From: Candidatus Woesebacteria bacterium
GTDB taxonomy: Bacteria > Patescibacteriota > Microgenomatia > UBA1400 > UBA12028
NCBI GenBank assembly: GCA_040006915.1
Contig: JBDTWD010000005.1
Location: 23,394-87,393, forward strand
DNA: 64,000 nt
Direction of reading: 5' to 3'
The position numbers and the translations under genes were made by a program. Below the pieces are notes generated by a model that did no database searches, was not told where the DNA came from, and saw only the letters and a program-made list of their open reading frames with translations. Below, in pieces: positions 9,044 through 60,752 of this stretch (within the stretch, counting starts at the first letter, position 1; each line of letters begins with the position of its first letter).

Positions 9044-9796
9044 CTACGAAATTTTTTTCTTCCAGTCAACAGCCGTCAAAAGCGGAGCAAAAATATCTTC
9101 TTCCATAGAAATTGAAAGTTGTTGCAGTTCCTCCTTTGTCGGATTTCGATCTTGAAAATGCACAAACGGAACCTGTTCGATTGTGGCAAGAGGAGTACAC
9201 TCATCTCCTTCTCCCATACAGACAACGGCAGCCGCTGCCAAACCCTCGGCAATATTACTGTTGGTGACTTTCAGTTTTCGCCCAAAGATATCAGGCTTGC
9301 CAATATAGCTATTCAAGGCTTCAAATCCGCTATGGCCCAGAGAAATTCCCACTGTTCCCCAGCGTAACGGCGTGACATGACTATCAGTAATAAGTACTCC
9401 TACTTCTTTCAGAGAAAAACGCGTACAGAGGTAAGTACGAATTTCGTTGGCCGATTTTTGTACATCTTTTGGCCATAATACGTACTGACCATCTCCATTC
9501 GATAAATCGATTCCTGCCGAGGCAATCATCGTATTGTTTTTGATTGTCATGTGAAAACCATACGGATTTTTGTCTGCTACATAAAAATCAGCTTCGGACG
9601 CTACTAACTTATCCCTATCTGCATCTCCACTCACAACGTTTCCTTCACACAATGAAACAATCTTTGAAGTGATAACTAAAACTTCACGCTCATGAAAATC
9701 AGAGATATATGTATCTATCAACACAATAAGTGTTCGTTCGTTGGCGCGAATAGGAGTGGTTTTAATCGGTGTTACAATCATAGGTATATAGAGCAT
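9044..9796 (-). CDS. CofE-like protein (F420-0:gamma-glutamyl ligase family fold)
   Basis: 250 aa. ITSKIVS..EG and GIDxSN motifs reminiscent of CofE/FbiB-N. Start is uncertain (MLY... or MIVTPIK...). Confidence 0.4.
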   Translation of the reverse strand: MLYIPMIVTPIKTTPIRANERTLIVLIDTYISDFHEREVLVITSKIVSLCEGNVVSGDADRDKLVASEADFYVADKNPYGFHMTIKNNTMIASAGIDLSNGDGQYVLWPKDVQKSANEIRTYLCTRFSLKEVGVLITDSHVTPLRWGTVGISLGHSGFEALNSYIGKPDIFGRKLKVTNSNIAEGLAAAAVVCMGEGDECTPLATIEQVPFVHFQDRNPTKEELQQLSISMEEDIFAPLLTAVDWKKKIS

Positions 9797-11706: not shown

Positions 11707-13203
11707 TTAATGCGTTTCTTGTTGAGCCTCACCATTCATCGTTTTTTGTCGCAAGGGGGATGGATCTATCCCATGCAAATCACTGATTTCTCTGACTGCT
11801 CGAAACACTAGAGACAAGATCATATCCTCAGTCAGCGAATACATATTAAAAGCAATCGTTGGGAGCGCATACTGCAGATATCCCATTTCAGCTTTTCTTG
11901 TTTCTCCTTCTACAAATGAAGGAATTCCAAATGGCAGCATGTGATGGTCAAGAAACTTGGTTCGGGCTGACGCTTCTCCGCCATACGGTTTATAGAGCTT
12001 TCCTTTTTCATCCATGAAAAATCGCATTCCTCCTGGACTTTCGATCGTGCCTCCACCAGCGATACGAGAAACACCAATCCCTGTTGCTCCCAGTGAGAGA
12101 GTGGTAGCAATATGATCACTTCCCCCACCTTCAACAATGACGGGGATTCCGACACTTCCCCGCATACTCCACACCAGTTGCGGCCAATCAATCACACTTC
12201 CACTGCGCACACCAGTGATACATCGCCCTCCTCCTCCAATCCCCACATATAAACCATCAGCTCCAGCTTTCTCTAATTGCATTGCTTGTTCGACACTGAC
12301 AACTTGTCCGGCAAAAATCTCCACATCTCCATCAAATTTTTTGCGCATTGCTTTGACAGTATCGAGTACCGCCGTTCCTGGCTCTGGTGAATAGACGCGA
12401 AAGACTCTGACGCCAGCGTCATACAAAGCTTTTGCCCGCTTTAACGCATGCACGGGTTGAGTCTCTACTACTCCCATTAAGTTTTGCTTCCACAACGACA
12501 GTAACTGCTCTTTGTCACTACGGCCAATCAGCACTTCACTGGCTTGTAAAGCTTGGTGAGTTTGCAAAACCAAATCTACTTGTCTGCCGATGTCATGAAA
12601 TACGCTGTTACGAGGAACTCCAACCAAACTATGTAATTGCGCCATAGTTGAAAGTGCAGAAACACTCCCATAGATATCCGGCATCGCTGAACCCACCAAT
12701 GGGGAACGGGCAAACTTTCCCAGTTTTACAAACGGACCAAAGCGGAGTCGTTCTGCTCGACCCACACGAGCACGCTGGGCTCCAACTACCTGGACTCCAA
12801 GATCCGAAATGGAGAGCGATAATCCTTCTTGCTCGGCAGATTGCATCACTGGAGAGGAAACGAGCGGAGGTGGAATAAACGGCTTTTTACTGATCGCGAC
12901 AAGTTCTTGGATACGATCAGGGTGATTGAACACTTCCAAGATATACTGACGCACTCGCAACGTCTTGATCATCAACTCTGGAGGGAGGACCATGGTCTGG
13001 GTTGAACCTAAGAAATCAAAAGGAGTTTGCAGCAGCCCTTGACTTGGGTACGCAGTTTTTTCATCTCCGCTTTCTAAAAACCAAAACTTCAAATGGGCGG
13101 AGAGATCTTTTTCTAACGGAGCAAGCTTCGCAAGAATATATGCTTCCCACGAAGCTTCGCGGAAAGAAGAAAAAGGAGGAATGGGATTTTTTACTCTAGC
13201 CAT
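11707..13203 (-). CDS. IMP dehydrogenase/GMP reductase-family TIM-barrel protein with a long N-terminal extension
   Basis: 498 aa. C-terminal 260 aa carry an IMPDH-type barrel (VGIGGGGRCITG with the catalytic Cys loop, glycine-rich phosphate-binding loops). The first 240 aa match nothing I recognise. Confidence 0.5.
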   Translation of the reverse strand: MARVKNPIPPFSSFREASWEAYILAKLAPLEKDLSAHLKFWFLESGDEKTAYPSQGLLQTPFDFLGSTQTMVLPPELMIKTLRVRQYILEVFNHPDRIQELVAISKKPFIPPPLVSSPVMQSAEQEGLSLSISDLGVQVVGAQRARVGRAERLRFGPFVKLGKFARSPLVGSAMPDIYGSVSALSTMAQLHSLVGVPRNSVFHDIGRQVDLVLQTHQALQASEVLIGRSDKEQLLSLWKQNLMGVVETQPVHALKRAKALYDAGVRVFRVYSPEPGTAVLDTVKAMRKKFDGDVEIFAGQVVSVEQAMQLEKAGADGLYVGIGGGGRCITGVRSGSVIDWPQLVWSMRGSVGIPVIVEGGGSDHIATTLSLGATGIGVSRIAGGGTIESPGGMRFFMDEKGKLYKPYGGEASARTKFLDHHMLPFGIPSFVEGETRKAEMGYLQYALPTIAFNMYSLTEDMILSLVFRAVREISDLHGIDPSPLRQKTMNGEAQQETH

Positions 13204-16314: not shown

Positions 16315-16929
16315 TTACATGGTTCTCCTCCCTTCGAGTGCGCGGGCAAGAGTCACCCCGTCTGCGTACTCAATATCGGCTCCAATTGGTAGTCCGTGAC
16401 CGATTCGGCTCACTTGAATATGAGTAGTATCTCCTTGTTGGCTTTGAAAATCCTGAATAAACTGCTGAATATACATTGCGGTTGCCTCACCTTCCATTGT
16501 CGGATTGGTCGCGAGAATGATTTCTTCAACTCCAGACAATCGTTTGCCAATGTCACGTAAATAGAGTTGGTCGGGTCCAATATTATTCAATGGGGAAATA
16601 GCTCCATGTAAAACATGATAGAGACCGGTAAATTTTTCACTGCGCTCGATTGCCAGCAGATCCAATGGTTGCTCTACCACACATAACACTTTTTGATTAC
16701 GAGAGAGATCAGAGCAAATCTCACACGGATCCGCTTCTCCGACGTTATGACAAATACTGCAAATTTTGGTGTTTTTTTTCAAATCGATGAGAGTTTGCGC
16801 AAAATGCTGTAATTCACTCTCTGGGTTGTGGAGCAAATAAAAAACCAGTCGTTGTGCTGACTTTGGTCCAATTCCCGGGAGTTTTTCAAATTGTTCAATG
16901 GTGGCACGCAGGCTTTTAGGAAGTTTCAT
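16315..16929 (-). CDS. recR: Recombination protein RecR
   Basis: MKLPKSLRATIEQFEKLPGIGPKSAQRLVFYLL (HhH), C4 zinc finger CSICHNVGEADPCEIC, Toprim domain. Start set at MKLPKS rather than the upstream in-frame extension. Confidence 0.9.
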   Translation of the reverse strand: MKLPKSLRATIEQFEKLPGIGPKSAQRLVFYLLHNPESELQHFAQTLIDLKKNTKICSICHNVGEADPCEICSDLSRNQKVLCVVEQPLDLLAIERSEKFTGLYHVLHGAISPLNNIGPDQLYLRDIGKRLSGVEEIILATNPTMEGEATAMYIQQFIQDFQSQQGDTTHIQVSRIGHGLPIGADIEYADGVTLARALEGRRTM

Positions 16930-16998
16930 TGACGTTTCGCAAAGACTACCATCTTGCGCGGCCTCTTGCAACCTTGGGGCCTAATCAACTACCATGGA

Positions 16999-18708
16999 AT
17001 GATGCTGTTTCAAACGGGTGAACGTGCTCATTCATTAGCGACCATGCTTGCCAACAAACTTCCAATTCCCTCGGGATTTATTGTGGCCTCCCAAGCGTTT
17101 GAAGCATTCGTGGAAGAAAATGACATCCGCGAGAGCGTCGAGTCCATTCTCAAAGGTCAATCATTTGACTCACCAAAAAGTTTGAAAGCCGCTTCAACCC
17201 AAATACGCCGCCAGATTCTCTCTGGAGAGTTCCCAACAGATATCGCCCACCAAATTCTTTCCATGTACATTAAACTGGGAGAACCGCGAGTCATGTTATT
17301 TCCCAGTATCGCCCTTACAAAAAAAGATCTGGAGAATTTCACCTCACCCGAGAATGCATTGTATGGGTATCAAGGAGACGCAAATCTGTTCGAAGGCATC
17401 AAAGAACTCTGGAGTCACTTTTTCGATCCTCAACCACTCTACTACCGCTTAAAGCACAAAAAAGATCATTTTACGTTACCTTTTGCGATCACCGTACAGT
17501 CCTTTCCTGTGGCCAAAGTGTCAGGCGTGATGTTTACCGATGATGTAACCTCACACACCAAACAAACGGTGCTACTTAAAATTGTGCATGGAGAAGGTGC
17601 GCTGATCGGAGAACTGGATGGAGCTGATTACTACTGGATCAAACGCGGAACGGGAGATGTATATAAATCTTCAACCGATACGCAAAAAACCAGAATCATT
17701 TTTGAGAATGGTGAAGAAGAACAAGAAAAAATTCCGAGTTCATTAAGTAAGAAACGCAAAGCCAGCCAAGATCTCCTTGTACGTTTAGCTAAACTGGCAG
17801 CCAAGCTCCAACAGCACATGTTTTTTCCCCAGCAAGCTACATTTAGTTTTGATGGAGAGAACGTAGCACTTATCGATACCAAACCCGCTCCCACGCACAC
17901 GGGAAGCATCGTGGCTCCATCACCAGTCTTCACTCCATCTTCAAAAACTATGCAGCCAGACCCCACAAAAGCTGGGTTGGTAACGCTAGGACTGCTTCAC
18001 CCACTCCCCCTTGCAGCCCACGCTCCCAAGTTTAACCATATCAGCGGTCACCTTCTCCTAGAATCTCAGTACATACTCTCAGAATTTGCCGGAGAGCTGA
18101 CACTCCAAAAACAACGACTGCTCACACACGAGTTGAAGAGGACTATTTCATTTATCACCACACATTGTAAAGTCGATCACGGATGTATCTATACATTTCC
18201 CAAAGCTCAAAGTTCCTTGCATCATATCGAAGCCCAACTCACGGCACTCCAAGAAATCAGACAAGATTTTCCACTGCTCCCTCTTTTACTGGTGGCTGAA
18301 ACCAGTGAAGCTCAACCCTATAGATTTTGGAACGCTCAATGGAATACTAGAGGATTTATGCGTTCAAGCCAAATCGGACATGCCCTGTTACTCAATACTC
18401 CCGCAAGTATTCATGAACTCACACAAAACCAAGAAAATGGCATCGATGCCGTGGTTGTTGATGTTGATCAACTTGATCTTTTTATGCATGGTGGAGAAGA
18501 ACACACGAACAAGTCAAGCATTACCCCAGCCTTAATGGAACAATTACAGCGGATCTTAAACTGGTGTCAGGAAAATGGAACAGTCGCTTTATTTAGTAGC
18601 AAACGACCTGTTGATTATGCTATGCTGAATGCACTTGCAGGAGAAATTTCTATCGAGTGGCTCACATCTGAGCCGCTCTATGGTCATTTGATTACACAGT
18701 CTGCGTAA
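16999..18708 (+). CDS. PEP synthase / pyruvate phosphate dikinase N-terminal (PPDK_N, ATP-grasp-like) domain protein. No recognisable phosphohistidine domain.
   Basis: The first ~330 aa resemble the nucleotide-binding domain of PpsA/PPDK/rifampin phosphotransferase (PSGFIVASQAFEAF...GEPRVMLFPS...VQSFPVAKVSGVMFT). I cannot find a GGxTSHAAI phosphohistidine motif. First ATG is at 16999; the ORF track uses a TTG at 16954. Confidence 0.55.
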   Translation: MMLFQTGERAHSLATMLANKLPIPSGFIVASQAFEAFVEENDIRESVESILKGQSFDSPKSLKAASTQIRRQILSGEFPTDIAHQILSMYIKLGEPRVMLFPSIALTKKDLENFTSPENALYGYQGDANLFEGIKELWSHFFDPQPLYYRLKHKKDHFTLPFAITVQSFPVAKVSGVMFTDDVTSHTKQTVLLKIVHGEGALIGELDGADYYWIKRGTGDVYKSSTDTQKTRIIFENGEEEQEKIPSSLSKKRKASQDLLVRLAKLAAKLQQHMFFPQQATFSFDGENVALIDTKPAPTHTGSIVAPSPVFTPSSKTMQPDPTKAGLVTLGLLHPLPLAAHAPKFNHISGHLLLESQYILSEFAGELTLQKQRLLTHELKRTISFITTHCKVDHGCIYTFPKAQSSLHHIEAQLTALQEIRQDFPLLPLLLVAETSEAQPYRFWNAQWNTRGFMRSSQIGHALLLNTPASIHELTQNQENGIDAVVVDVDQLDLFMHGGEEHTNKSSITPALMEQLQRILNWCQENGTVALFSSKRPVDYAMLNALAGEISIEWLTSEPLYGHLITQSA

Positions 18709-18716
18709 TAAACCGT

Positions 18717-19970
18717 ATGTCCAAGATTACTTTACTTACTGCTCGTGAGATTTTAGATTCTAGAGGTTTCCCAACGGTTGAGGTGCGTATTGATGTCGAC
18801 ACCGGACAAAGTGTGAGAGCCAGTGTTCCCGGAGGAACCGGTACTGGCAAGCACGAAGCTTTAGAAATTCGCGATGGTGACCCAGCTCGGATGGGGGGGA
18901 AAGGCGTAAAGAAAGTTGTCGCCACTATTAATGAAACCATCGCTCCATTAGTCATTGGCCAAGATCCTATTCGGCAAACGGCTACTGACCAAATGCTCTA
19001 CAATCTTGATGGCACACCGAATAAAAGCAAACTGGGTGCAAATGCGATTTTAGGGGTATCAATGGCGGTGTGCAAAGCAGGAGCCGCAAGTGTCGGAATG
19101 CCTGTCTATAAGTACCTCAAAGAGAAATATGCCATCACCTCTACTTTTCATATCCCTTCGCCAATTTTTAACTTAATTAATGGCGGCGCGCATGGAGCGG
19201 GTAACTTGGACTTTCAAGAATTCCATGTGATTCCGACGAGCAACAAACCGTTTTCAGCTTCACTCCAACTAGGAGTTGAGTTTTTCATGGCCTTAGAGCA
19301 AGTTTTGATTTCTAAAAATGCAATTCACAGTGTGGGAATTGAAGGAGGATTTGCGCCGAATCTATTTACCAATCTTGACGCTCTGGAATTACTCCTTGAA
19401 GCGATGAAACGTACTCCATATCTTTTCGGCCAAGATTTATTCTTTGGATTGGATGTGGCTGCAGACTACTTTTTTAAAAATGGAAAATATCAAATCCGTG
19501 ATCGACAAGATCCGTTCTCAGCCAAAGAATTACTTGAGTATTATAAGGAATTAAACAGTAAGTATCATATATTCTCGATTGAGGATCCATTCCAAGCTGA
19601 TGATTGGCAAGCTTGGAGTGCAATCACCGCAGAATTATCTGATCGAGTCGTGATTGTAGCCGATGATTTGGTGACCACGAATAAAGAGCGACTACAAAAA
19701 GCTATCAGTGAGAAAGCGTGTACCTCAGTTATGGTGAAACCAAATCAGATCGGAACAATCAGTGAAACTGTCGAAGTAGTAAAAATTGCCAAAGACGCCA
19801 AAATGCAGGTCGTCGCATCACATCGAAGTGGAGAAACGAATGATGACTTCATTGCCGACTTTGCGGTGGGACTCGGATGTGATTACGTTAAATTCGGGGC
19901 TCCGATTCGAGGAGAACGTGTTGCTAAATACAATCGACTCCTTGAGATCGAAGCAGAACTTCCAAAATGA
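18717..19970 (+). CDS. eno: Enolase (phosphopyruvate hydratase)
   Basis: MSKITLLTAREILDSRGFPTVEV... is canonical enolase, with conserved SHRSGETED-like motif (SHRSGETND). 417 aa. Confidence 0.95.
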   Translation: MSKITLLTAREILDSRGFPTVEVRIDVDTGQSVRASVPGGTGTGKHEALEIRDGDPARMGGKGVKKVVATINETIAPLVIGQDPIRQTATDQMLYNLDGTPNKSKLGANAILGVSMAVCKAGAASVGMPVYKYLKEKYAITSTFHIPSPIFNLINGGAHGAGNLDFQEFHVIPTSNKPFSASLQLGVEFFMALEQVLISKNAIHSVGIEGGFAPNLFTNLDALELLLEAMKRTPYLFGQDLFFGLDVAADYFFKNGKYQIRDRQDPFSAKELLEYYKELNSKYHIFSIEDPFQADDWQAWSAITAELSDRVVIVADDLVTTNKERLQKAISEKACTSVMVKPNQIGTISETVEVVKIAKDAKMQVVASHRSGETNDDFIADFAVGLGCDYVKFGAPIRGERVAKYNRLLEIEAELPK

Positions 19971-21595
19971 CCAAACCAAAACCGGTAGTACTACTAATCC
20001 TTGATGGCTGGGGAATTGGCCCTGCAAACGCGGGTAATGCCATAACCAGAGCCAATACTCCTAACATGCGTAAGTACTGGGTATCGTTTCCCCACACCCA
20101 ACTCACTGCTTCTGGAGAGGCGGTTGGGCTTCCGCGCGGGGAAGACGGCAATACCGAAACTGGTCACTTAAATATTGGTGCAGGAAAGATCGTGTACCAA
20201 GATTTACCACGCATTAATATGAGTATTGCGGATGGTACGTTCGGGACCAATCGCGTCTTCTTAGAAGCTTTTGAACATGTGAAGAAAAATAATTCCGCGT
20301 TGCATTTGATGGGGTTAGTCGGTTCAGGTGGAGTGCACAGCAATATCGAACATCTCTATGCCCTGCTCTCAGCCGCAAAAAAAAATGGCCTCGGAGAAAA
20401 CGTATTCTTACACTTGTTTACAGACGGCCGCGACTCACCCCCAACATCAGCTATTTCATTTGTGACCCAAATCCAAGAACAATGTAAATCGTTAGGGATC
20501 GGACAGATTGCTACCATTATCGGCAGATATTACGCGATGGATCGAGACAAACGCTGGGATCGGACGCAGCTTGCCTACGATGCGCTGACGGTGGGAAGTG
20601 CCACCTGTACGAGTGATCCGCTTGCTATCATCCAGGAGCGATACAAAGCCGGAGAGACCGATGAGTTTATCAAACCAATTTCCGTCTGTGCTCATGATGG
20701 GAAGCCCAAAGTCATCACTGATAAGGATGCAGTCATTTTTTACAACTTCCGTATCGATCGTCCCCGGGAATTAACAAAGGCTTTCGTGCTTCCCAATTTT
20801 GAGAGCGGAATTTCCTCCGAAGGATTCGATCCCTATACAGTCAAATATCACCACACCCATATTCAGCAACAACCAGCAGCTACCCAAACATTTCAGCGTC
20901 AAAAAATTCTTAAAGATTTATATTTTGTGACTATGACTGAGTATGAACGAGGATTGCCGACCAACATTGCCTATCCTCCTCAGACAGTTGAAATGCCGCT
21001 GGGAAGAGTAATCGAACAACGGGCCTTGAAACAACTACGCATGAGCGAGACTGAAAAAGAACGATTTGTTACCTACTATTTTAACGGCTTACGTGAAGAC
21101 GCGTTCAGTGGCGAAGATCACATTATTATCCCCAGTAAAAAAGTAGCGACCTATGATTTGGCTCCGGAAATGAGTGCTCGAGAAATTACTCAAACATTCC
21201 TTGAGAAACTCAATGGCGATTTCTATGACTTCGTCTGTATTAATCTTGCGAACGCCGATATGGTAGGCCATACCGGGAATTTAACTGCAGCAATGAAAGC
21301 AATCGAGATCGTCGATGAGTGCGTCGGTAAGATCGTCGCCGCTGTCACCATTCGAGGTGGGGTAGTCCTCATTACAGCTGATCACGGAAATGCGGAAGAA
21401 ATGATTAACAATGAAACTGGAGAGATCGATACAGAACACTCTGCTTATCCAGTCCCACTGTATCTTATTGGCAACCAATTCCAGAATCAGTCCACTATGC
21501 TGCAATCGGGAATTCTTGCTGACATCGCCCCGACTATATTAAAGTTGATGGATATTCCTAGGCCTGATAGTATGACGGGGCGAGCGCTTTTTTAA
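19967..21595 (+). CDS. gpmI: 2,3-bisphosphoglycerate-independent phosphoglycerate mutase
   Basis: VLLILDGWGIG N-terminus, metalloenzyme-superfamily motifs ADHGN, 542 aa. 4-nt overlap with eno. Confidence 0.9.
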   Translation: MTKPKPVVLLILDGWGIGPANAGNAITRANTPNMRKYWVSFPHTQLTASGEAVGLPRGEDGNTETGHLNIGAGKIVYQDLPRINMSIADGTFGTNRVFLEAFEHVKKNNSALHLMGLVGSGGVHSNIEHLYALLSAAKKNGLGENVFLHLFTDGRDSPPTSAISFVTQIQEQCKSLGIGQIATIIGRYYAMDRDKRWDRTQLAYDALTVGSATCTSDPLAIIQERYKAGETDEFIKPISVCAHDGKPKVITDKDAVIFYNFRIDRPRELTKAFVLPNFESGISSEGFDPYTVKYHHTHIQQQPAATQTFQRQKILKDLYFVTMTEYERGLPTNIAYPPQTVEMPLGRVIEQRALKQLRMSETEKERFVTYYFNGLREDAFSGEDHIIIPSKKVATYDLAPEMSAREITQTFLEKLNGDFYDFVCINLANADMVGHTGNLTAAMKAIEIVDECVGKIVAAVTIRGGVVLITADHGNAEEMINNETGEIDTEHSAYPVPLYLIGNQFQNQSTMLQSGILADIAPTILKLMDIPRPDSMTGRALF

Positions 21596-21616
21596 TATTT
21601 TTATAAAGGAGAATAT

Positions 21617-21922
21617 ATGGCTATTTCACCTAAACTTGGTGTTGAAGCAACAGGAACTCTGTCAAATGAAGCTTTAGCTTCCATTGCCCTCACAGAAGAT
21701 AATGTAAAAGACATTGTGAAAACCGCTCTTCAAGGAGATGATACAAAATCTTTTATACAAAAGATGGGTCCTTTTATGAATAGACAAGAGGTTCTCACTG
21801 CTCTGCCCAAATTTCTGGCAGAATATGGAAAGACGGATGTGATGAGAAAAAACGAAGCTGCACCAAATATGAGGAAAGTGACAGAGCAAATATTAGCACA
21901 AGCGAAAGCAAAATATAGTTAG
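21617..21922 (+). CDS. Hypothetical small protein
   Basis: 101 aa. GGAGA RBS upstream. Lies between gpmI and the acetyl-CoA synthetase gene. Confidence 0.4.
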   Translation: MAISPKLGVEATGTLSNEALASIALTEDNVKDIVKTALQGDDTKSFIQKMGPFMNRQEVLTALPKFLAEYGKTDVMRKNEAAPNMRKVTEQILAQAKAKYS

Positions 21923-21972
21923 GGTTTTAGTTTTCGCTTTACCCTTCACTCTAGCCCTGCTATTCTGAATGT

Positions 21973-24042
21973 ATGTTGGATTCGCTACTGCATCCCAAAT
22001 CTATTGCTATTGTCGGTGTTTCTTTGGAACCACAAAAAGTAGGGCATCAGGTTTTTGCTAACTTGCTTTCATTCCCAGGAAAGATCTACCCCATTAATCC
22101 AAAACATAAAAAAATATCTGGACATGTTTGTTATCCCGATGTTTTAAGCATTCCTGAACATATAGATTTGGTAATCATTGCTACCCCTGTCCCGACGGTT
22201 GAAGATGTCGTTCATCAATGCGTCGATAAGAAAGTGAAAGCGATAATCATTATCACGGCAGGGTTTGCAGAAAATGGGAAAGCCGGAAAAAAACTCCAAG
22301 ATCGAATTGCAACCACGCTTAAAAATAATGGCATTGCGCTGCTTGGTCCAAATACGTTGGGAGCCATTAATCCCTATGAAGATTTAAACGCTAGTTTTGC
22401 CCCGGCTCATATAGATAAAGGCTCCATCGCCCTTATCAGTCAATCCGGTGCGATGCTGACGACCATCTTTTCGCAGTTTGCTAGCCGTAAAATTGGCTGT
22501 TCATTTGCGCTCTCCTTAGGCAATGGAGCTGGAATTACAGTGAACGATGCACTCTCGTATGCAATGAAAGACCCAAAGACAAAGGTGATTGCATTGTATC
22601 TTGAATCGCTTCCAGATCTTCAGCATTTTTTCTATTTAACCAAAGAAATCAGTCAAACAAAACCAATTTTTCTCTTAAAAGGCGGAGTGACTGATCAAGG
22701 ACAGCATGCGTCACTTTCTCATACAGCAGCCTTAGCAACCGACAGTACGCTACTTCGTGAAGCCCAACATCAGTTTGGCTACACCATGGTTGATACCATT
22801 GAACAATTTATTGAAACCACTTTCTTTGCTGACAAATTAAAAGAGTTGCCTTTGAGCTTAATGATTCTCACCAATGCTGGTGGTCCCGGTGTAAACTCAA
22901 TCGATTTGGCATCGAATGCAGGTATTCGTTTGGCTTCGTGGACACCCGCAACTATCCAACGATTTGCCGCTAGTCTCCCCCGAGTGATTCCTCATAATCC
23001 GACAGATCTATTAGGAGACGCATCGGTTGCTGACATTGAAACAGCTCTCGCCTTTGCAAATGAAGATCCATTAATCGATTCCATCTTACTCATTATTACT
23101 CCCCAAGCGGTGACGGATATTCCCGGGATGGTGAAAATGCTCATCGAGAAGCAAAAAAACAATCGCAAGCCATTAGTTGTGGCTTTAATGACCGGAGAAG
23201 AGTATCGACGTGAACTGGTGAAATTACGGACGGCTGGCATCACCGCTGTCGAATATGCGAACGAAGGCGTTGAAATCTATGCATATCTTTCCCATGCCAG
23301 AGCTTCCGCACATACTGATCGATCGGCAACATTGATGAAAACCTTGGCTCACAACTTAACTGTTAATCCGTCACTTCCAAAAGGCCTTGAGACCAGACGG
23401 TCATTCCCACTGACTGAGAATGAACTTTCACAAGTATATCTGCTTCTCGAAGCCTACGGCTGTACGCTGCCTCGCGCGGCAATTGTCTCAAATCGAAAAC
23501 AACTCGATGACCTTGATGCTCTTGATCCGGCACGAGTCTATCCGTTGATTGCAAAAACTGCCAATTTGACCTTAAAACATAAAGCTATCCTCGGAGCAGT
23601 GATCAAAGATATTCAGAACAAAGATCAAGCCGTGCAGGCATTTGAAAAATTACAAAAATTTGGAAACCAAGTTGTGTTTCAAGAAGTTATTGAAGATGCA
23701 ATTGAAGTGATCATTGGGGTCAGGCGCGATCTGATCTATGGCCCGTTCATTGCGATTGGAACCGGTGGGAGCTTAACGAATATCATCGCTGACAGAGCCT
23801 ACATTTTCTTACCTGCCAGTGGACGGGAGATACGAACGGCCTTCAAACGAACAAAATTGTTTACTCTTCTTACTTCTGCGCAACGAGAGGAAGTTTTAAC
23901 CGTTTTGGAACAATGCCAATCTCTATTCGAAGAGCATTCAGAAATTTTCGAATTAGAAATTAATCCCCTGATGGTAACCAAAGAAAAAAGTTACGTCGCA
24001 GACATCAAAGTGCAGATGCAGAGCAAAGAAGAAAGGGTATAA
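21973..24042 (+). CDS. Acetate--CoA ligase (ADP-forming), fused alpha/beta (NDP-forming acyl-CoA synthetase superfamily)
   Basis: 689 aa. N-terminal CoA-binding Rossmann (SIAIVGVS...), succinyl-CoA-synthetase-like ligase-CoA domain with the phosphohistidine loop region, C-terminal ATP-grasp (beta) domain. Confidence 0.8.
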   Translation: MLDSLLHPKSIAIVGVSLEPQKVGHQVFANLLSFPGKIYPINPKHKKISGHVCYPDVLSIPEHIDLVIIATPVPTVEDVVHQCVDKKVKAIIIITAGFAENGKAGKKLQDRIATTLKNNGIALLGPNTLGAINPYEDLNASFAPAHIDKGSIALISQSGAMLTTIFSQFASRKIGCSFALSLGNGAGITVNDALSYAMKDPKTKVIALYLESLPDLQHFFYLTKEISQTKPIFLLKGGVTDQGQHASLSHTAALATDSTLLREAQHQFGYTMVDTIEQFIETTFFADKLKELPLSLMILTNAGGPGVNSIDLASNAGIRLASWTPATIQRFAASLPRVIPHNPTDLLGDASVADIETALAFANEDPLIDSILLIITPQAVTDIPGMVKMLIEKQKNNRKPLVVALMTGEEYRRELVKLRTAGITAVEYANEGVEIYAYLSHARASAHTDRSATLMKTLAHNLTVNPSLPKGLETRRSFPLTENELSQVYLLLEAYGCTLPRAAIVSNRKQLDDLDALDPARVYPLIAKTANLTLKHKAILGAVIKDIQNKDQAVQAFEKLQKFGNQVVFQEVIEDAIEVIIGVRRDLIYGPFIAIGTGGSLTNIIADRAYIFLPASGREIRTAFKRTKLFTLLTSAQREEVLTVLEQCQSLFEEHSEIFELEINPLMVTKEKSYVADIKVQMQSKEERV

Positions 24043-25877
24043 TGGCGATGAATATGATATTCAATTGGAAAATTGGTGGAAGAGCCGGCGAAGGCATTGC
24101 TGCTACCAGTTTCTTGATGGCTAAAATTGCGCAGCGAGCTGGTCTGTCTGTTTTCGAGTACGGGGAATACCCTTCTCTTATCCGCGGAGGTCATACGACC
24201 GGACAAGTTCATGCCGGCTCAGAACCAATCACTGTGCAGAAAAAAATGGTAGATTTGATGATTGTTCTCAATGAGGACTGTATCAAACTTCATCTCACTG
24301 AATTTGATGAACACACAAAATTTTTGGTTGATACCCAAGACGATAAAATTGATTTCACAAAATATCCAAGCATCAAACCTGAACAAATTGTTTCCGTTCC
24401 CATGGTACAGATTGCGCGAGAAACAACTGGAAAATCTTTAGCTTCAAACATGGTGGCTTTAGCGGTGTCTTGTTCGCTTCTAGGACTTGAGAAACAAGCT
24501 CATATTGAAGTCATTAAAAGCTTCTTCGGTCGCAAGGGACAAGAGGTAGTTGACGAAAATATTCGTGCGGCACAGAAAGGCTACGAATTTATCACTCATC
24601 AAGCAACACCCGCTCCAGAAGCAGCTCCAGCTCCTGAAGTATCTACTTCAGTCGAGGAAAGTACACAAAATTCTACCCCAATGACCGCTGGAAGCAGTGC
24701 TGAAAAAAGTATGGCAACTGAACCTGTTGCAAACACCCCTCAGTCATCCTCAAATACCCTGTTATTGACCGGATCTGAAGCCATTGGTTTTGGAGCGCTT
24801 TCAGCTGGAGTGCAATATTATAGTGCCTACCCCATGACACCATCTTCAGCATTGATGACCTTTATGGCGGATGCACAGCAGCATTACCCCATGGTTCTAA
24901 AACACGCAGAAGATGAAATTGCGGCAATTAACAATGTCTTAGGAGCAGCATTTTCGGGAGCGCGAGCAATGACGGGAACTGCTGGCGGTGGTTTTGCACT
25001 CATGGTCGAAGGCGTGTCTCTAGCTGGGGTGACCGAACTTCCACTCGTAGTTTTAGTTGCCGGTAGACCGGGACCAGCGACCGGACTTCCGACTTGGACA
25101 TCACAGACTGATCTTTCGTATGTCATTTATTCTGGACATGGCGAGTTTCCCAAAGTCGTTTTTACTCCCGGAAATTTGGAGGAGTGTTTTAAACTCACTC
25201 GCATTGCTTTCTTAATTGCGGAAAAATATCAAACTCAAGTGTATATTATTGCGGACAAAATTCTGCTGGAATCTCGCATGACAATTGATCGGAGCTTGAT
25301 TCCCACAGATTTTACCAACCAACGATTTTCATTCGCACAAGATCCATTACCGGAAGATAATTCATACAGACGTTTTGTCGATACCAAAGAAGGATATTCT
25401 CCTCGCTCAGTTCCAGGACAACCACATGGACTGCAACTGACCAACAGTTATGAACATGATGAGTTCGGATATGCAACCGAAGAAGCAGAGATGACCAAGA
25501 AAATGGTGGAAAAACGCATGAGAAAATTAGATGGAATTATAAAAGAGATTCCCGGTCCAATTTTGATTGGGCCACAAGAAGCTGATCTCACTTTTGTCTG
25601 CTGGGGAAGCTCAAGATTGGCTTTGGAAGAGGTGATCAAACATACCAATGCAAACATTATTCATTTGATGACCATGCTGCCATTTAAAGTTGAAGAATTT
25701 AAAAACCTGGCAAGCAAAACAAAAAAGATGATCATGGTTGAAGAAAATATTGGCCGCCAAGCAGAAATGCATATCAAAAAAGAGACAGGGGTTACCTTTG
25801 AACATCGTATCAATCGCTATGATGGCAGACCTTTGTACGCAGAAGAAATTTTAGAAGAGATACAACACCTACATTAA
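24042..25877 (+). CDS. 2-oxoacid:ferredoxin oxidoreductase, fused gamma-alpha subunit
   Basis: N-terminal 190 aa is a POR/KOR gamma domain (GGRAGEGIAATSFLMAKIA). A Pro/Ala/Glu-rich linker follows, then the alpha subunit (LLTGSEAIGFGALSAGVQYYSAYPMTPSS). Start codon overlaps the upstream stop. Confidence 0.85.
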   Translation: MAMNMIFNWKIGGRAGEGIAATSFLMAKIAQRAGLSVFEYGEYPSLIRGGHTTGQVHAGSEPITVQKKMVDLMIVLNEDCIKLHLTEFDEHTKFLVDTQDDKIDFTKYPSIKPEQIVSVPMVQIARETTGKSLASNMVALAVSCSLLGLEKQAHIEVIKSFFGRKGQEVVDENIRAAQKGYEFITHQATPAPEAAPAPEVSTSVEESTQNSTPMTAGSSAEKSMATEPVANTPQSSSNTLLLTGSEAIGFGALSAGVQYYSAYPMTPSSALMTFMADAQQHYPMVLKHAEDEIAAINNVLGAAFSGARAMTGTAGGGFALMVEGVSLAGVTELPLVVLVAGRPGPATGLPTWTSQTDLSYVIYSGHGEFPKVVFTPGNLEECFKLTRIAFLIAEKYQTQVYIIADKILLESRMTIDRSLIPTDFTNQRFSFAQDPLPEDNSYRRFVDTKEGYSPRSVPGQPHGLQLTNSYEHDEFGYATEEAEMTKKMVEKRMRKLDGIIKEIPGPILIGPQEADLTFVCWGSSRLALEEVIKHTNANIIHLMTMLPFKVEEFKNLASKTKKMIMVEENIGRQAEMHIKKETGVTFEHRINRYDGRPLYAEEILEEIQHLH

Positions 25878-25888
25878 CAGGAGCTTTT

Positions 25889-26158
25889 ATGACTGAAAAA
25901 TACGGAGATATCGATACAGAGAAAGAAATATTTAAATTCCTTTCAGTCCATGAGGGTGAGTCCGCCAGCATGGAACAAGTCATTCGTACTATATTAACTG
26001 AGCATGGTGGCTCGCTCTCACCAACAGATCTTGTAGCGGAAGTGAAGAAACGAGTGGAAGCAGCACAGCTGGCATGGAGCCATATGCTTTTTTCTGCAGT
26101 AGTGTCGAGCAAATTTTTCCTCGATTCAGACCTTATTGTTCATCTGAACACACCATAA
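25889..26158 (+). CDS. Hypothetical small acidic protein located between the OFOR alpha and beta genes
   Basis: 89 aa. No Cys clusters, so not a ferredoxin delta subunit. GGAG-like RBS. Confidence 0.35.
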   Translation: MTEKYGDIDTEKEIFKFLSVHEGESASMEQVIRTILTEHGGSLSPTDLVAEVKKRVEAAQLAWSHMLFSAVVSSKFFLDSDLIVHLNTP

Positions 26159-26164
26159 AACTCT

Positions 26165-27022
26165 ATGACAACAAGTGACATTACATTAAAATCCCCTAAC
26201 TTTCCCACCTGGTGTCCAGGATGTGGAGACTATGGAATTTGGAGTGCAATAAAAAAAGCGTTAGTTGAGTCCAATATTCCTGAAGAACAACTGGTGATCG
26301 TTTATGGTGTCGGATGTTCTGGGAACATGGCAGACTTCCTTCGCTGTTATGGATTCCATGCGCTGCACGGTCGGGCACTTCCCGTTGCCGAAGCAATTAA
26401 GCTTGCCAATCATGATTTGAAAGTCCTCGTCATCGCTGGGGATGGTGACACATATGGTGAAGGTATGGGACATTTTGTTGCAGCCTGTCGTGGTAATCAT
26501 GATATTACACTCCTAGTTCATAACAACCAAGTGTATGGTCTGACGACTGGTCAGGCAGCACCTACCACACCCAAAGGCTGGGAAACCAAATCAACTCCTA
26601 CCGGACAGATCGAAGTTCCAGTAAACCCAATTGCTATTGCGGCATCGACAGGAGCCTCATTTATTGCGCGGGGCTATGCCGGTAACATTCCCTTTACATC
26701 AGAACTTATTAAAAAGGCAATTAATCATAAAGGATTTTCCTTAGTCGATACGTTCCAACCCTGTGTTACTTTTAACAAACACAACACGCATGTCTGGTAC
26801 AACGAACACACCAACAAGCTCGATGAAACACGGGATACAAGTGACCCAATGGAAGCAATTAAACTATCCATGGATCCAGAGAAACTGCATTTGGGAGTTT
26901 TGTACGAAAACCAAACAGTGAAACCATATCACGAGTGGGTTCCCAACCTTACCAAAGGTTCACTAGTGAAACAATTTGCAACTCAGGTCTCACTCGCTGA
27001 AAGCTTCAAACAATATCTCTAG
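26165..27022 (+). CDS. 2-oxoacid:ferredoxin oxidoreductase beta subunit (TPP-binding)
   Basis: CPGCGDYG Fe-S/TPP motif, GDGD TPP-binding region. 285 aa. Confidence 0.9.
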   Translation: MTTSDITLKSPNFPTWCPGCGDYGIWSAIKKALVESNIPEEQLVIVYGVGCSGNMADFLRCYGFHALHGRALPVAEAIKLANHDLKVLVIAGDGDTYGEGMGHFVAACRGNHDITLLVHNNQVYGLTTGQAAPTTPKGWETKSTPTGQIEVPVNPIAIAASTGASFIARGYAGNIPFTSELIKKAINHKGFSLVDTFQPCVTFNKHNTHVWYNEHTNKLDETRDTSDPMEAIKLSMDPEKLHLGVLYENQTVKPYHEWVPNLTKGSLVKQFATQVSLAESFKQYL

Positions 27023-27626
27023 GATCGAGTTCTTTTTCTCCACCTCGCATATGAAGGATTGCTGGGATGATTGAAACTACGACAATAATTGCGATGATTG
27101 GTAACAGATATTTGTCAGCATTCGGAATGATACGACCTAAAAAGTATCCTCCCAATACCATCCCTGAGGCCCACAGAGTGCCACCCACGATGTTGTTTAG
27201 GAAGAATTTCTCATAATGCATGTTCGCAATACCGGCGGCGATAGGAGCAAAGGTACGGACGGCAGGGATAAAACGAGCCAAGATTAATGCTTTGCCACCG
27301 TGTTTCTCATAAAATCTTTGAGCTTGAGTCAAATATTTTTTCTTGAAGAAAAAAGAATCTTTCTGACGCATCAACCAGGATCCTAATTTCTTCCCGGTCC
27401 AATATCCAGCATTGTCACCTAAGACAGCAGCCGCCACCAAAAGTGGCACTAATACCCATAAATGGAAAACACCTTGGGATGCCAACAGTCCTGCGGTAAA
27501 AAGCAAACTATCACCAGGAAGAAAGAATCCGAAAAACAAACCAGACTCAGCAAAGACGATACCAAATAGACCGACATATCCCACCGTTTGGATAAGTTCG
27601 ATCAAATCAAAGTGTGGGAAGATCAT
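27006..27626 (-). CDS. DedA/SNARE-associated family membrane protein
   Basis: GLFGIVFAESGLFFGFFLPGDSLL is the DedA signature. 206 aa. Confidence 0.8.
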   Translation of the reverse strand: MIFPHFDLIELIQTVGYVGLFGIVFAESGLFFGFFLPGDSLLFTAGLLASQGVFHLWVLVPLLVAAAVLGDNAGYWTGKKLGSWLMRQKDSFFFKKKYLTQAQRFYEKHGGKALILARFIPAVRTFAPIAAGIANMHYEKFFLNNIVGGTLWASGMVLGGYFLGRIIPNADKYLLPIIAIIVVVSIIPAILHMRGGEKELDPRDIV

Positions 27627-53917: not shown

Positions 53918-54319
53918 TTACTTGAGGGTTTTCATTTGAACCAAATCCCAAAGATTCCCATAGAGGTCCTCAAATACTGCAACTGTACCGTAATCGGCTT
54001 CTTTTGGTTCTCGGATAAATTTGATTCCTACAGATACCATCTCTTTGTAATCACGCCAGAAATCATCAGTATTCAAAAATAAGAATACTCGTCCCCCGGC
54101 TTGATTTCCAACAAATGGTTCCTGTATCGGTTTTGAAGCCCGAGCCAACAGCAGATGAGTTCCCGTCGCATTTGGTGGAGCGACTACCACCCAACGTTTG
54201 TCCTGTTCAGGTTGGTAGGTATCTTCAACCAAAGTGAAGTGTAATTTTTTGGTATAAAACTCAATCGCTTCATCATAGTCTCTGACCACCAAGGCGATGA
54301 GAAAAATCGATTGCTTCAT
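53918..54319 (-). CDS. VOC (glyoxalase/bleomycin-resistance) family protein
   Basis: 133 aa. IALVVRDYDEAIEFYTKKLHF...VAVFEDLYGNLWDLV VOC modules. Confidence 0.65.
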   Translation of the reverse strand: MKQSIFLIALVVRDYDEAIEFYTKKLHFTLVEDTYQPEQDKRWVVVAPPNATGTHLLLARASKPIQEPFVGNQAGGRVFLFLNTDDFWRDYKEMVSVGIKFIREPKEADYGTVAVFEDLYGNLWDLVQMKTLK

Positions 54320-54906
54320 AGATGGGAAATGTTATGACAATCTACTAAAGTGAATTTATCTCCATCTTTTTGAATAGTTGTGATCGAGCATTCCTTGACG
54401 GAATAATCTCTCCCTTCGGGAAAGGCCTGTACAAGATGAACCAATTCATCTTCTGAAAATTCGTTTCGCAAGAAATCAGAAATGGCGCCCCCATGCGTAA
54501 CGAGAGCAATATACATATCCTGATTAGAGTCTAACTCTTCAATTATACTTCTGATGCGCTTCCCTGTGGCATAGGAAGACATTCCGTGCAGAGGAGCACT
54601 CATACGGTTCCACGATGCTTTTACCCAATCGTGAAAGAATTCGTCACGAGTTTTACCGATATAGTCTGCAAAGTCCATTCGTTCCTTTAGTCGTTCATCC
54701 GTATGAATTGGTAATGAAAGAGTGGCAGCTATATGTCCTGCCGTTTGTTGAGTCCTCAGTTTTGGACTCGCAATAATGTACGAAATTGGAAATTTCTTTA
54801 AGAATTCTCCGGTCTTTTGCGCTTGTTGATGTCCAAGTTCGGTAAGCTCAGGATCATAGTGGCTTTCCTGCTTTTGTCCGTGGCGAATAAGGTAAAAAGT
54901 GGTCAT
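54316..54906 (-). CDS. Histidine phosphatase family protein (phosphoglycerate-mutase-like)
   Basis: LIRHGQ N-terminal catalytic RHG motif, second His in the VTHGG block. Confidence 0.8.
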   Translation of the reverse strand: MTTFYLIRHGQKQESHYDPELTELGHQQAQKTGEFLKKFPISYIIASPKLRTQQTAGHIAATLSLPIHTDERLKERMDFADYIGKTRDEFFHDWVKASWNRMSAPLHGMSSYATGKRIRSIIEELDSNQDMYIALVTHGGAISDFLRNEFSEDELVHLVQAFPEGRDYSVKECSITTIQKDGDKFTLVDCHNISHL

Positions 54907-60700: not shown

Positions 60701-60752
60701 TGAGTTCGTGCTTGACAAAATTGTAAGAATTTCTTACGCTTGCTCCTAAACT

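Follow-up and report, generated by a model that had tools for sequence, protein, structure and literature searches.

A PEP-synthase-derived protein without its phosphohistidine domain in a conserved lower-glycolysis gene row of Candidatus Woesebacteria

The locus and its conservation

A stretch of 64,000 nucleotides from a Candidatus Woesebacteria genome (contig JBDTWD010000005.1; the whole 64-kb stretch is termed the window, and positions are counted from its first letter) was analyzed with the focus on ppsL, a gene derived from phosphoenolpyruvate (PEP) synthase (PpsA), whose product is most likely either a retained pseudo-enzyme or a neofunctionalised protein. On the + strand, positions 16999-27022 hold a co-directional row of genes in the order ppsL, eno, gpmI, a 101-aa open reading frame (ORF), acd, oforA, an 89-aa ORF and oforB. 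Genes were called from the ORF listing together with Pfam and NCBIfam scans. Every gene call of the first-pass annotation, which had been made from the sequence without database searches, is upheld by these scans; its gene list had overlooked only the 89-aa ORF at 25889-26158. The row is tightly packed, with spacers ranging from -4 (a 4-nt overlap) to 50 nt, and a scan for consensus promoters and terminators inside it returned nothing above shuffle expectation. The identical gene order can be observed on at least seven independent contigs (L001/L008, L009, L012, L013, L015, L016 and a JGI contig), implying that the arrangement is not due to chance and that the cluster is real and conserved. 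The first gene of the row and its parts are as follows.

16999-18708, + strand: ppsL, 569 aa from an ATG start; PEP-synthase-derived protein without the phosphohistidine swivel domain
16999-17895, + strand: ATP-grasp (PPDK_N) domain of ppsL, residues 1-299; Foldseek matches 2ols and 5hv6, hhalign probability 99.8%
17896-17979, + strand: inter-domain linker of ppsL, residues 300-327; occupies the place of the ~100-aa swivel His domain of PpsA
17980-18708, + strand: degenerate PEP-utilizers_C TIM (triosephosphate isomerase) barrel of ppsL, residues 328-569

Domain architecture of ppsL

The 569-aa form of ppsL is 100% identical to an NCBI protein (P0001) named [quoted passage not shown], and the gene carries the name "phosphoenolpyruvate synthase/pyruvate phosphate dikinase" in the JGI annotation. 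An alternative TTG start at 16954 gives a form of 584 aa, overlapping the start of recR. The sole Pfam match is PPDK_N (PF01326), with 130.6 bits against a cutoff of 27, over residues 24-313 of the 584-aa form. Scored over the whole protein, the PEP synthase model TIGR01418 (EC 2.7.9.2) yields 115.4 bits against an equivalog cutoff of 739.75. Matches to PDB chains and NCBIfam models, namely PEP synthases, rifampin phosphotransferases (RPH) and prodigiosin ligases, cover only residues ~20-315 and lie far under the equivalog cutoffs; NF041857 (rifampin phosphotransferase) aligns with the N-domain only, scoring 83.8 bits where its cutoff is 999.

The structure of ppsL was modelled with AlphaFold2 on a 12-sequence alignment. 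The full-length model consists of the ATP-grasp domain (1-299), a disordered linker (300-324; predicted local distance difference test, pLDDT, ~30) and a C-domain of 8 beta/alpha units. Its predicted template modelling score (pTM) is 0.46, and no confident packing between the domains is predicted. Modelled alone, the C-domain again forms 8 beta/alpha units, with a pLDDT of 89.5 and a pTM of 0.88. This C-terminal half, at first described as uncharacterised, is instead a degenerate PEP-utilizers_C TIM barrel, as is indicated by several lines of evidence. A Foldseek search against the PDB with the full-length model, which supplies the fold evidence for the C-domain, placed Neisseria PpsA (2ols) at rank 1, spanning both domains, while matches for the C-domain comprised PpsA PEP-binding domains (9dae/8a8e), HpcH/HpaI aldolases and the C-domain of enzyme I. 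No Pfam model, that of PEP-utilizers_C (PF02896) included, gave a match on the C-terminal 270 aa, even at E 10, where only noise appeared. Alignment of the C-domain against a canonical PpsA alignment by hhalign gave 90% probability and an E of 1.6e-6. In the HMMER search with a C-half profile, the next-best matches after the family itself (E 1.5e-19 and weaker) were proteins of 720-750 aa that are themselves PF02896-positive, and the C-domain profile matched PpsA 8a8e at E 2e-5. Moreover, the barrel could be aligned end to end with canonical PpsA when three-domain intermediates were used as a bridge. Together, these comparisons point to homology of the C-half with PEP-utilizers_C, beyond mere resemblance of fold.

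Absence and probable stepwise loss of the phosphohistidine domain

The absence of a phosphohistidine domain, already suspected in the first-pass annotation, withstood each search. Pfam found no match in ppsL to the PF00391 mobile domain with its GGxTSHAA motif, and a purpose-built hidden Markov model (HMM) of the canonical mobile domain had no significant match in any family member, the best being a weak one at E 0.24. A bona fide GGxTSHAAI His domain, named beforehand as the find that would overturn the claim, was thereby looked for by profile as well as by structural model, and was not found; in the model, a disordered linker stands instead. Across the family, the place of the swivel domain is filled by a variable, disordered linker of 25-45 aa, and the region G286-G331 of the ppsL alignment contains zero invariant columns. 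The swivel domain is truly gone from ppsL, and an unconstrained linker has taken its place. Furthermore, a six-frame search of the window and of 14 related loci revealed no stand-alone mobile-domain ORF and no second PpsA or pyruvate phosphate dikinase (PPDK). The 101-aa ORF of the row was considered as a separate His carrier and rejected, since it contains no His and has no homologue in L001.

Relatives in the same genomic position record intermediate states. P0079 (730 aa) has three domains with the catalytic His replaced by Asp, and occupies the same slot, with recR on one side and eno, gpmI, acd, oforA and oforB, in this order, on the other. P0078 (722 aa) likewise has three domains, with His replaced by Ala; it adjoins recR and shares the upstream synteny, and its contig stops at the gene. 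P0084 is a further three-domain relative, in which His is replaced by Tyr. P0082 is another two-domain variant in the same operon slot and still has part of a segment that the family has lost. P0078, P0079, P0082 and ppsL are orthologues. The three-domain orthologues lack the His and still have the domain, implying that the phosphocarrier function was abandoned before the domain was deleted, and we infer that loss of the His was followed by degeneration and subsequently by deletion of the domain. Among the sequences compared, the canonical one closest to ppsL is a Microgenomates PpsA.

Active-site residues of the two remaining domains

Residue positions are given in the numbering of a canonical PpsA (P0013). 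In 120 ordinary PpsA proteins from candidate phyla radiation (CPR) bacteria, the catalytic His is kept in 118, and every other site residue in at least 97%, apart from conservative T138S and Q185 changes. A different picture is obtained for the PEP/pyruvate site in the barrel of the ppsL family, a site made up, in its canonical form, of three Arg, the Mg-binding Glu and Asp, an Asn and the Cys that donates a proton. There, R491 is replaced by E, D or Q, and R538 by T, V and others; a 34-aa segment, NEY...NPMxGxRG, which bears R568, is deleted; E635 is replaced by N, K or S, R670 is lost, and D660 and C707 both vary. Asp residues that are new and invariant stand at canonical G657 and N659, forming D488-x-D490, a feature common to the two-domain family and the three-domain His-less relatives.

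In the ATP-grasp domain, the Lys22 equivalent is kept as R or K. The Arg of VRSSATAED (Arg92/117 equivalent) is replaced by F, S or T; the SFAGQxxT loop (Thr136 region) has degenerated, and its model is poor. Neither the D nor the E of DIEW is kept, D or E stands at Q319, and R321 is mostly changed to K. In RPH-Lm, Lys22, Arg117 and Thr136 are needed for productive phosphotransfer (PMC4844700); of these three, only the Lys22 equivalent is retained in ppsL. Judged from its sequence, ppsL is not a dikinase. The earlier statement that it cannot act as a canonical one was made on account of the missing His domain, and it gains strength here from the additional loss of the PEP/pyruvate residues of the barrel and of the Arg and Thr of the ATP-grasp domain.

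Family size, evolutionary rate and selection

The two-domain ppsL family is very small. A database search returned only 12 full-length homologues, of 565-582 aa and 35-100% identity. An exhaustive HMMER search with the C-half profile over 1.84 billion cluster representatives gave 10 representatives at E <1e-30, nine of them of 552-582 aa and one a fragment of 379 aa. A motif-based scan of 185,579 species genomes gave 6 loci, five of them with members of the family and one, L011, with a canonical PpsA. The ORF is intact, at 552-582 aa, in ~17 sequence clusters, and 79 columns are invariant over the 12 members, down to 35% identity to the first sequence.

Within the neighbourhood, ppsL is the most divergent gene. 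Over four orthologous loci, identity to the window proteins is 76-87% for eno, 68-83% for gpmI, 76-84% for recR, 67-82% for oforB and 56-70% for acd, whereas for ppsL it is only 30-41%. The ratio of nonsynonymous to synonymous substitution rates (dN/dS) was calculated by the method of Nei and Gojobori for one pair of closely related genomes (L015 vs L016). For ppsL it is 0.099, with 0.056 in the N-domain and 0.103 in the C-domain, while the linker has a dN of 0.61; for the neighbours it is 0.009 (eno), 0.017 (gpmI), 0.023 (recR), 0.022 (oforB), 0.039 (acd) and 0.039 (oforA), all of these being rough as absolute values. Purifying selection acts on both domains of ppsL, at a strength 3-10 times below that on the neighbouring enzymes, and the linker drifts freely. 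A dN/dS of ~0.1 together with intact ORFs in ~17 clusters rules out a pseudogene and indicates a folded, selected protein; purifying selection on both domains further implies that the protein does something.

The wider set of His-less PpsA homologues

Loss of the catalytic His extends beyond the two-domain family. Among the best 150 matches to the C-domain profile, 81 are three-domain representatives with an aligned mobile domain, and the His is missing in 52 of them; since the set was chosen by similarity to a degenerate profile, this fraction does not measure how common His loss is. Counted as clusters at 50% identity, these amount to at least 52 further ones of three-domain PpsA homologues without the catalytic His. 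The GGxTS-x-AA motif is otherwise intact in many of them, for example GGRTSPIALLARD or GGQSSYIATISRE, and the substitutes (P0078-P0217; loci L003-L005, L013 and L014) include Q, Y, P, D, F, E, A and others. Many are substituted at other catalytic positions as well. P0081, which has Gln for His, and P0083 are found in a different row, pgm-manC-pgi-ppsL-eno; P0083 is degenerate elsewhere, yet its His is still aligned.

The idea that most PEP synthases of CPR bacteria are dead was examined and rejected. The 119 nearest relatives of P0081, named PEP synthase and originating from Parcubacteria, Levybacteria, Gottesmanbacteria, Shapirobacteria and Microgenomates, are fully canonical, and the enrichment in His-less forms reflects selection by a degenerate profile. 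The ordinary CPR PpsA is therefore a normal dikinase. The degenerate forms seem to be derived and in the minority. In the searchable library of literature, no report was found on His-less PpsA proteins, including those of CPR bacteria.

The neighbouring enzymes and the PEP-to-pyruvate step

The remaining genes of the row are listed below, where 2-PG denotes 2-phosphoglycerate, OFOR 2-oxoacid:ferredoxin oxidoreductase and TPP thiamine pyrophosphate.

18717-19970, + strand: eno, enolase (2-PG to PEP); TIGR01060 493 bits, cutoff 300; SHRSGET motif; starts 8 nt past the ppsL stop
19967-21595, + strand: gpmI, cofactor-independent phosphoglycerate mutase; TIGR01307 621 bits, cutoff 331
21617-21922, + strand: 101-aa ORF; no Pfam or NCBIfam match; zero His; slot not conserved
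21973-24042, + strand: acd, fused alpha-beta NDP(ADP)-forming acyl-CoA synthetase; CoA_binding, Succ_CoA_lig, Ligase_CoA_2 and ATP-grasp_5
24042-25877, + strand: oforA, OFOR gamma-alpha fusion; POR (PF01558) and POR_N (PF01855); TIGR03710 551.7 bits, cutoff 482.75; YPMTPSS motif
25889-26158, + strand: 89-aa ORF between oforA and oforB; no Pfam or NCBIfam match; lineage-specific
26165-27022, + strand: oforB, OFOR beta (TPP/[4Fe-4S]); TPP_enzyme_C and PFO_beta_C; TIGR02177 321 bits, cutoff 261.9

All five subdomains of acd are present, with Pfam matches over residues 8-681 and a full-length alignment to 8wzu, in which the catalytic His motif SLSHTAALA of acd aligns with AMSHTGALM. The best relatives in the PDB are 8wzu and 4xyl, the closest solved relative being a 4-hydroxybutyrate-CoA ligase, and on the acetate-CoA ligase model TIGR02717 the protein scores 415.7 bits, under the cutoff of 567. 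Its reaction is probably that of acetyl-CoA, ADP and Pi to acetate and ATP, a specificity taken from its adjacency to the OFOR genes. The translation of oforB carries the motifs CPGCGD, GVGCSG, QPC and GDGD...NN, corresponding to TPP and one [4Fe-4S] cluster. With both TIGR03710 and TIGR02177 above their cutoffs, the initial description of the OFOR as a gamma-alpha fusion plus beta holds, and the enzyme is of the two-subunit type without a delta subunit. In some organisms, enzymes of this type have a broad specificity or act on 2-oxoglutarate; here, the context beside acd suggests pyruvate as the substrate.

With regard to gpmI, residue 63 is a Thr, which aligns with Ser62, the catalytic nucleophile in the enzyme of B. 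stearothermophilus (GNTETGH vs GNSEVGH in the alignment with 1ejj/1o99); PDB entry 1o99 is itself a variant with Ala at this position. The Thr and the GNTETGH motif are kept in 11 of 11 related loci (L001, L002, L006-L010, L012, L013, L015 and L016). An insertion of ~35 aa (residues 279-312) relative to 1ejj was also observed. Elsewhere in the window, 54316-54906 on the - strand encodes a protein of 196 aa from branch 1 of the histidine phosphatase superfamily (His_Phos_1), to which cofactor-dependent phosphoglycerate mutases and phosphatases belong; it may be a second mutase, or a phosphatase, beside gpmI in the same genome.

The first-pass annotation had proposed a complete route from 3-phosphoglycerate (3-PG) to acetate. 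Both ends of this route are encoded, namely 3-PG to PEP and 2-oxoacid to acid plus ATP. The step from PEP to pyruvate is left without a credible catalyst at the locus, because ppsL has lost the His domain and the canonical residues of the PEP/pyruvate site. Over all ORFs of at least 250 aa and most smaller ones, the window contains no gene for pyruvate kinase (PK), Pta, AckA or PPDK. PK, Pta and AckA are the genes that the first-pass annotation had said would make the locus redundant, and their absence is a result for the window only. Ferredoxin, hydrogenase and PSRP genes were likewise not found in the window. PK has been reported in only ~1/3 of CPR genomes (PMC7304191). A complete Microgenomates genome (Ch65) encodes enolase, PK, "PEPS", POR and an acetyl-CoA synthetase yielding acetate and ATP (PMC7143001), and the eno/gpmI plus OFOR/acd module is thus ordinary and already known for Microgenomates.

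Flanking genes, variable slots and other observations in the window

The row is bordered by two genes on the opposite strand.

16315-16971, - strand: recR, divergent, at the ppsL end of the row
27006-27626, - strand: VTT-domain gene, convergent, at the oforB end of the row

Two slots inside the row vary among the related loci. Between gpmI and acd, the window has the 101-aa ORF, L001 has an Acetyltransf_7 gene and a 97-aa ORF, and the JGI contig has a 292-aa ORF; in L012 and L013 the slot is empty. No similarity was detected between the 101-aa ORF and the 97-aa ORF of L001. The gap between oforA and oforB measures 288 nt in the window; in most of the orthologous loci the two genes abut or overlap, and L001, L012, L013 and the JGI contig have them side by side. 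L009, L015 and L016 carry an ORF of 99-101 aa in this slot, unrelated to the 89-aa ORF of the window; between L015 and L016 the ORF shows 62% identity and a dN/dS of 0.18. The slot seems to collect lineage-specific small genes. The 89-aa ORF was considered as a conserved delta-like subunit of the OFOR, an assignment rejected because the ORF is absent in most orthologous loci and dissimilar to the 99-aa ORF of L009.

Further observations concern the wider surroundings. Two conserved members of the upstream syntenic block match their families weakly or in part. They are an IMPDH-family protein (11707-13203, - strand), of whose 498 residues only 168-415 are matched (76 bits), and an F420_ligase-domain protein (9044-9796, - strand), although F420 synthesis is not expected in the host organism. 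At the far end of the window, 60750-63998 (+ strand) is a single ORF of >1083 aa that crosses the window end, with a hydrophobic N-terminal stretch and a somewhat raised GC content of 0.47-0.48; it probably encodes a large protein that is secreted or located at the surface. The GC-richer region at 60.7-64 kb might be taken for an ORF-free stretch, and is really this one long ORF leaving the window. The records L006-L009 and L011 are titled "uncultured Pseudomonadales bacterium", which agrees neither with their gene content nor with the naming of P0001 and L010 as Woesebacteria; these titles of operon-bearing metagenome-assembled genome records are likely a placeholder or a mislabel.

Interpretation of ppsL

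In the explanation that we favour, the operon encodes two working halves of a fermentative route. In the first half, gpmI and eno convert 3-PG to 2-PG and then to PEP; in the second, the OFOR and acd would convert a 2-oxoacid, presumably pyruvate, to acyl-CoA with reduced ferredoxin, and subsequently to the acid with ATP. ppsL is an orthologue of the CPR-type PEP synthase gene and no longer a dikinase. Its swivel domain has been deleted in favour of a short, unconstrained tether, its barrel and ATP-grasp domain have lost key residues, and the protein would no longer interconvert PEP and pyruvate. It would persist as a non-dikinase ligand-binding, structural or regulatory partner, that is, a pseudo-enzyme, and its place beside eno would be inherited from the ancestral PpsA gene of the same slot. 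The conversion of PEP to pyruvate would be performed by another enzyme, most simply a pyruvate kinase encoded outside the window. To this explanation as a whole, a retained pseudo-enzyme in a conserved operon with the PEP-to-pyruvate step performed by another enzyme, we assign a probability of roughly 55%.

Several points weigh against it. The family keeps a set of invariant polar and charged residues (R97, R150, K152, K188, K194, E199, D210, R253-K254 and D488-x-D490), a pattern met more typically in ligand-binding or catalytic sites than in a pure scaffold. The Mg-ligand mutant Glu297Ala of RPH is still active (PMC4844700), implying that loss of the DIEW Glu alone is no proof of a dead ATP-grasp domain; the domain in ppsL is treated here as remodelled, not as proven dead. 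No PK is encoded in the window, PK is patchy in CPR genomes, and ppsL sits exactly where an enzyme for PEP to pyruvate would be expected, so that a true pathway hole at this step is possible. For the first half of the barrel, residues were mapped by way of intermediate alignments, not by superposed structures. Finally, dS in the pair of genomes compared is ~1-3 and thus near saturation, which makes the absolute dN/dS values rough, although the contrast with the neighbours is large.

One alternative is that ppsL has been neofunctionalised into an enzyme for another substrate, which would use its remodelled, basic pocket in the ATP-grasp domain together with a new metal site, D488-x-D490, at the mouth of the barrel. 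Purifying selection on both domains is consistent with it, as are the many invariant charged residues specific to the family. The D-x-D motif ends the beta strand that bears the canonical N-D pair and is kept both in the two-domain family and in the three-domain His-less relatives, and in fold the barrel is also similar to the metal-dependent HpcH/HpaI aldolases. However, ppsL evolves much faster than any neighbouring enzyme. Of the other residues that might belong to such a site, the three-domain orthologues conserve neither H334 nor H497, and they conserve S534 only in P0081 and P0083. The genomic context suggests no substrate, and the full-length pTM of 0.46 gives no confident domain packing. 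A neofunctionalised enzyme is considered unlikely.

A second possibility is that ppsL catalyzes the conversion of PEP to pyruvate in a new, phosphohistidine-independent manner, either by direct transfer between barrel and ATP-grasp domain or by hydrolysis of PEP. The gene holds the first place in an operon that encodes the steps before PEP and after pyruvate, and its adjacency to eno is preserved in two different operon types. The PK situation described above agrees with such a function (PMC7304191), and PpsA has a glycolytic role in Thermococcus, as cited in that work. Against this, all canonical barrel ligands (R491, R538, R568, E635, D660, R670 and C707) are replaced or deleted, the ATP-positioning Arg and Thr are gone, and the substitutions in the site differ among orthologues, which suggests relaxed constraint rather than redesign. 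ppsL is also the fastest-evolving gene of the neighbourhood, and descent from the ancestral PpsA of the slot explains the adjacency to eno. The first-pass suggestion of a novel PEP-handling enzyme is disfavoured, and the reading is regarded as improbable. The same low degree of belief applies to its broader form, in which ppsL, and possibly the wider His-less set, would be a phosphohistidine-independent enzyme for PEP to pyruvate or for another phosphoryl or 2-oxoacid conversion in PK-less Woesebacteria; mechanistically, the flexible tether would join the remodelled ATP-grasp site and the D-x-D metal site of the barrel.

That ppsL is a decaying, functionless remnant, kept open only through polarity or translational coupling with eno, is very improbable. 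The fastest evolution in the neighbourhood, the lost catalytic residues and the spacing of just 8 nt to eno would fit such a remnant, but dN/dS is far under 1 (~0.1; 0.056 in the N-domain), 79 columns are invariant over the 12 members down to 35% identity, length is conserved in the ~17 clusters, and a free linker between constrained domains is the signature of a folded, selected protein. Only a slim chance is given to ppsL as one half of a two-component dikinase of the HpeHI or phenylphosphate synthase type, with the phosphohistidine carrier encoded elsewhere. Split dikinases with separate ATP-grasp and His/substrate polypeptides do exist (PMC12167813), and HpeI (9goj) is at rank 3 in the Foldseek search; yet the six-frame search of the window and the 14 related loci gave no PF00391-like ORF, the 101-aa ORF of the operon has no His, the three-domain orthologues lost the His and kept the domain, and the acceptor and donor sites are themselves degenerate. 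An RPH-like enzyme, raised in the first-pass annotation along with a regulatory kinase, or a VadK-like regulatory His kinase is hardly credible: the N-domain is weakly similar to NCBIfam RPH models and VadK demonstrates that PPDK relatives can turn into regulators (PMC13400623), but RPH and VadK alike need a swivel-domain His (PMC4844700, PMC13400623) that ppsL does not have, and ppsL has no rifampin-binding domain, its C-domain being a PEP-utilizers_C barrel.

The locus bears on the way in which genomes of this kind are interpreted. CPR metabolic reconstructions routinely score any match to PPDK_N or "PEP synthase" as a working PEP/pyruvate step, notably where PK is missing, and ppsL represents a whole orthologous lineage in which the PEP synthase call is wrong. 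If PK is present in these organisms, ppsL would be a clean natural case of a central-metabolic enzyme turned into a selected pseudo-enzyme, the mirror image of VadK. If PK is absent, there would be an unexplained gap in lower glycolysis, which ppsL may fill by new chemistry.

Comparison with known systems

Compared with PpsA (2ols, 8a8e and the Microgenomates protein P0320), ppsL has a homologous PPDK_N ATP-grasp domain and a homologous PEP-utilizers_C barrel in the same order, and CPR PpsA-like genes likewise adjoin eno. It differs in having no swivel domain, no NPMxGxRG segment, no canonical barrel residues, no ATP-grasp Arg/Thr and no DIEW pair. In the barrel, the HpcH/HpaI class II aldolases (2v5k, 4b5s) superpose nearly as well as the PpsA C-domains; detectable sequence homology, by contrast, is found only with PEP-utilizers_C.

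HpeHI (PMC12167813) and RPH (PMC4844700) share the ATP-grasp fold with ppsL, as reflected in the Foldseek matches to 9goj (E 1e-18) and 5hv1 (E 5e-19). Both possess a His swivel module, in trans as HpeH or in cis in RPH, as well as a small-molecule-binding domain, and ppsL has neither. Among PPDK/PpsA relatives that are domain-truncated and have a non-canonical role, the nearest precedent is VadK (Rv1127c) of M. tuberculosis, a PPDK-derived regulatory kinase that does not perform the canonical reaction and acts on metabolism by other means (PMC13400623). Like ppsL, it is a PPDK/PpsA relative that has lost one domain and has been retained. However, VadK lost the PEP/pyruvate barrel and keeps the autophosphorylating His domain, and ppsL is the reverse, with a degenerate barrel and no His domain, so that a His-kinase mechanism of the VadK type is impossible.

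As for the surrounding module, the route by POR/OFOR and ADP-forming acetyl-CoA synthetase in Archaea, amitochondriate protists and CPR bacteria (PMC7143001) resembles the present one in the placement of an OFOR beside an NDP-forming synthetase and in the formation of ATP at substrate level without Pta-Ack. Nothing essential is different; the OFOR here is of the two-subunit type, and the specificities of OFOR and acd are taken from context. The module is therefore already known, and what is new at this locus is the protein variant ppsL.

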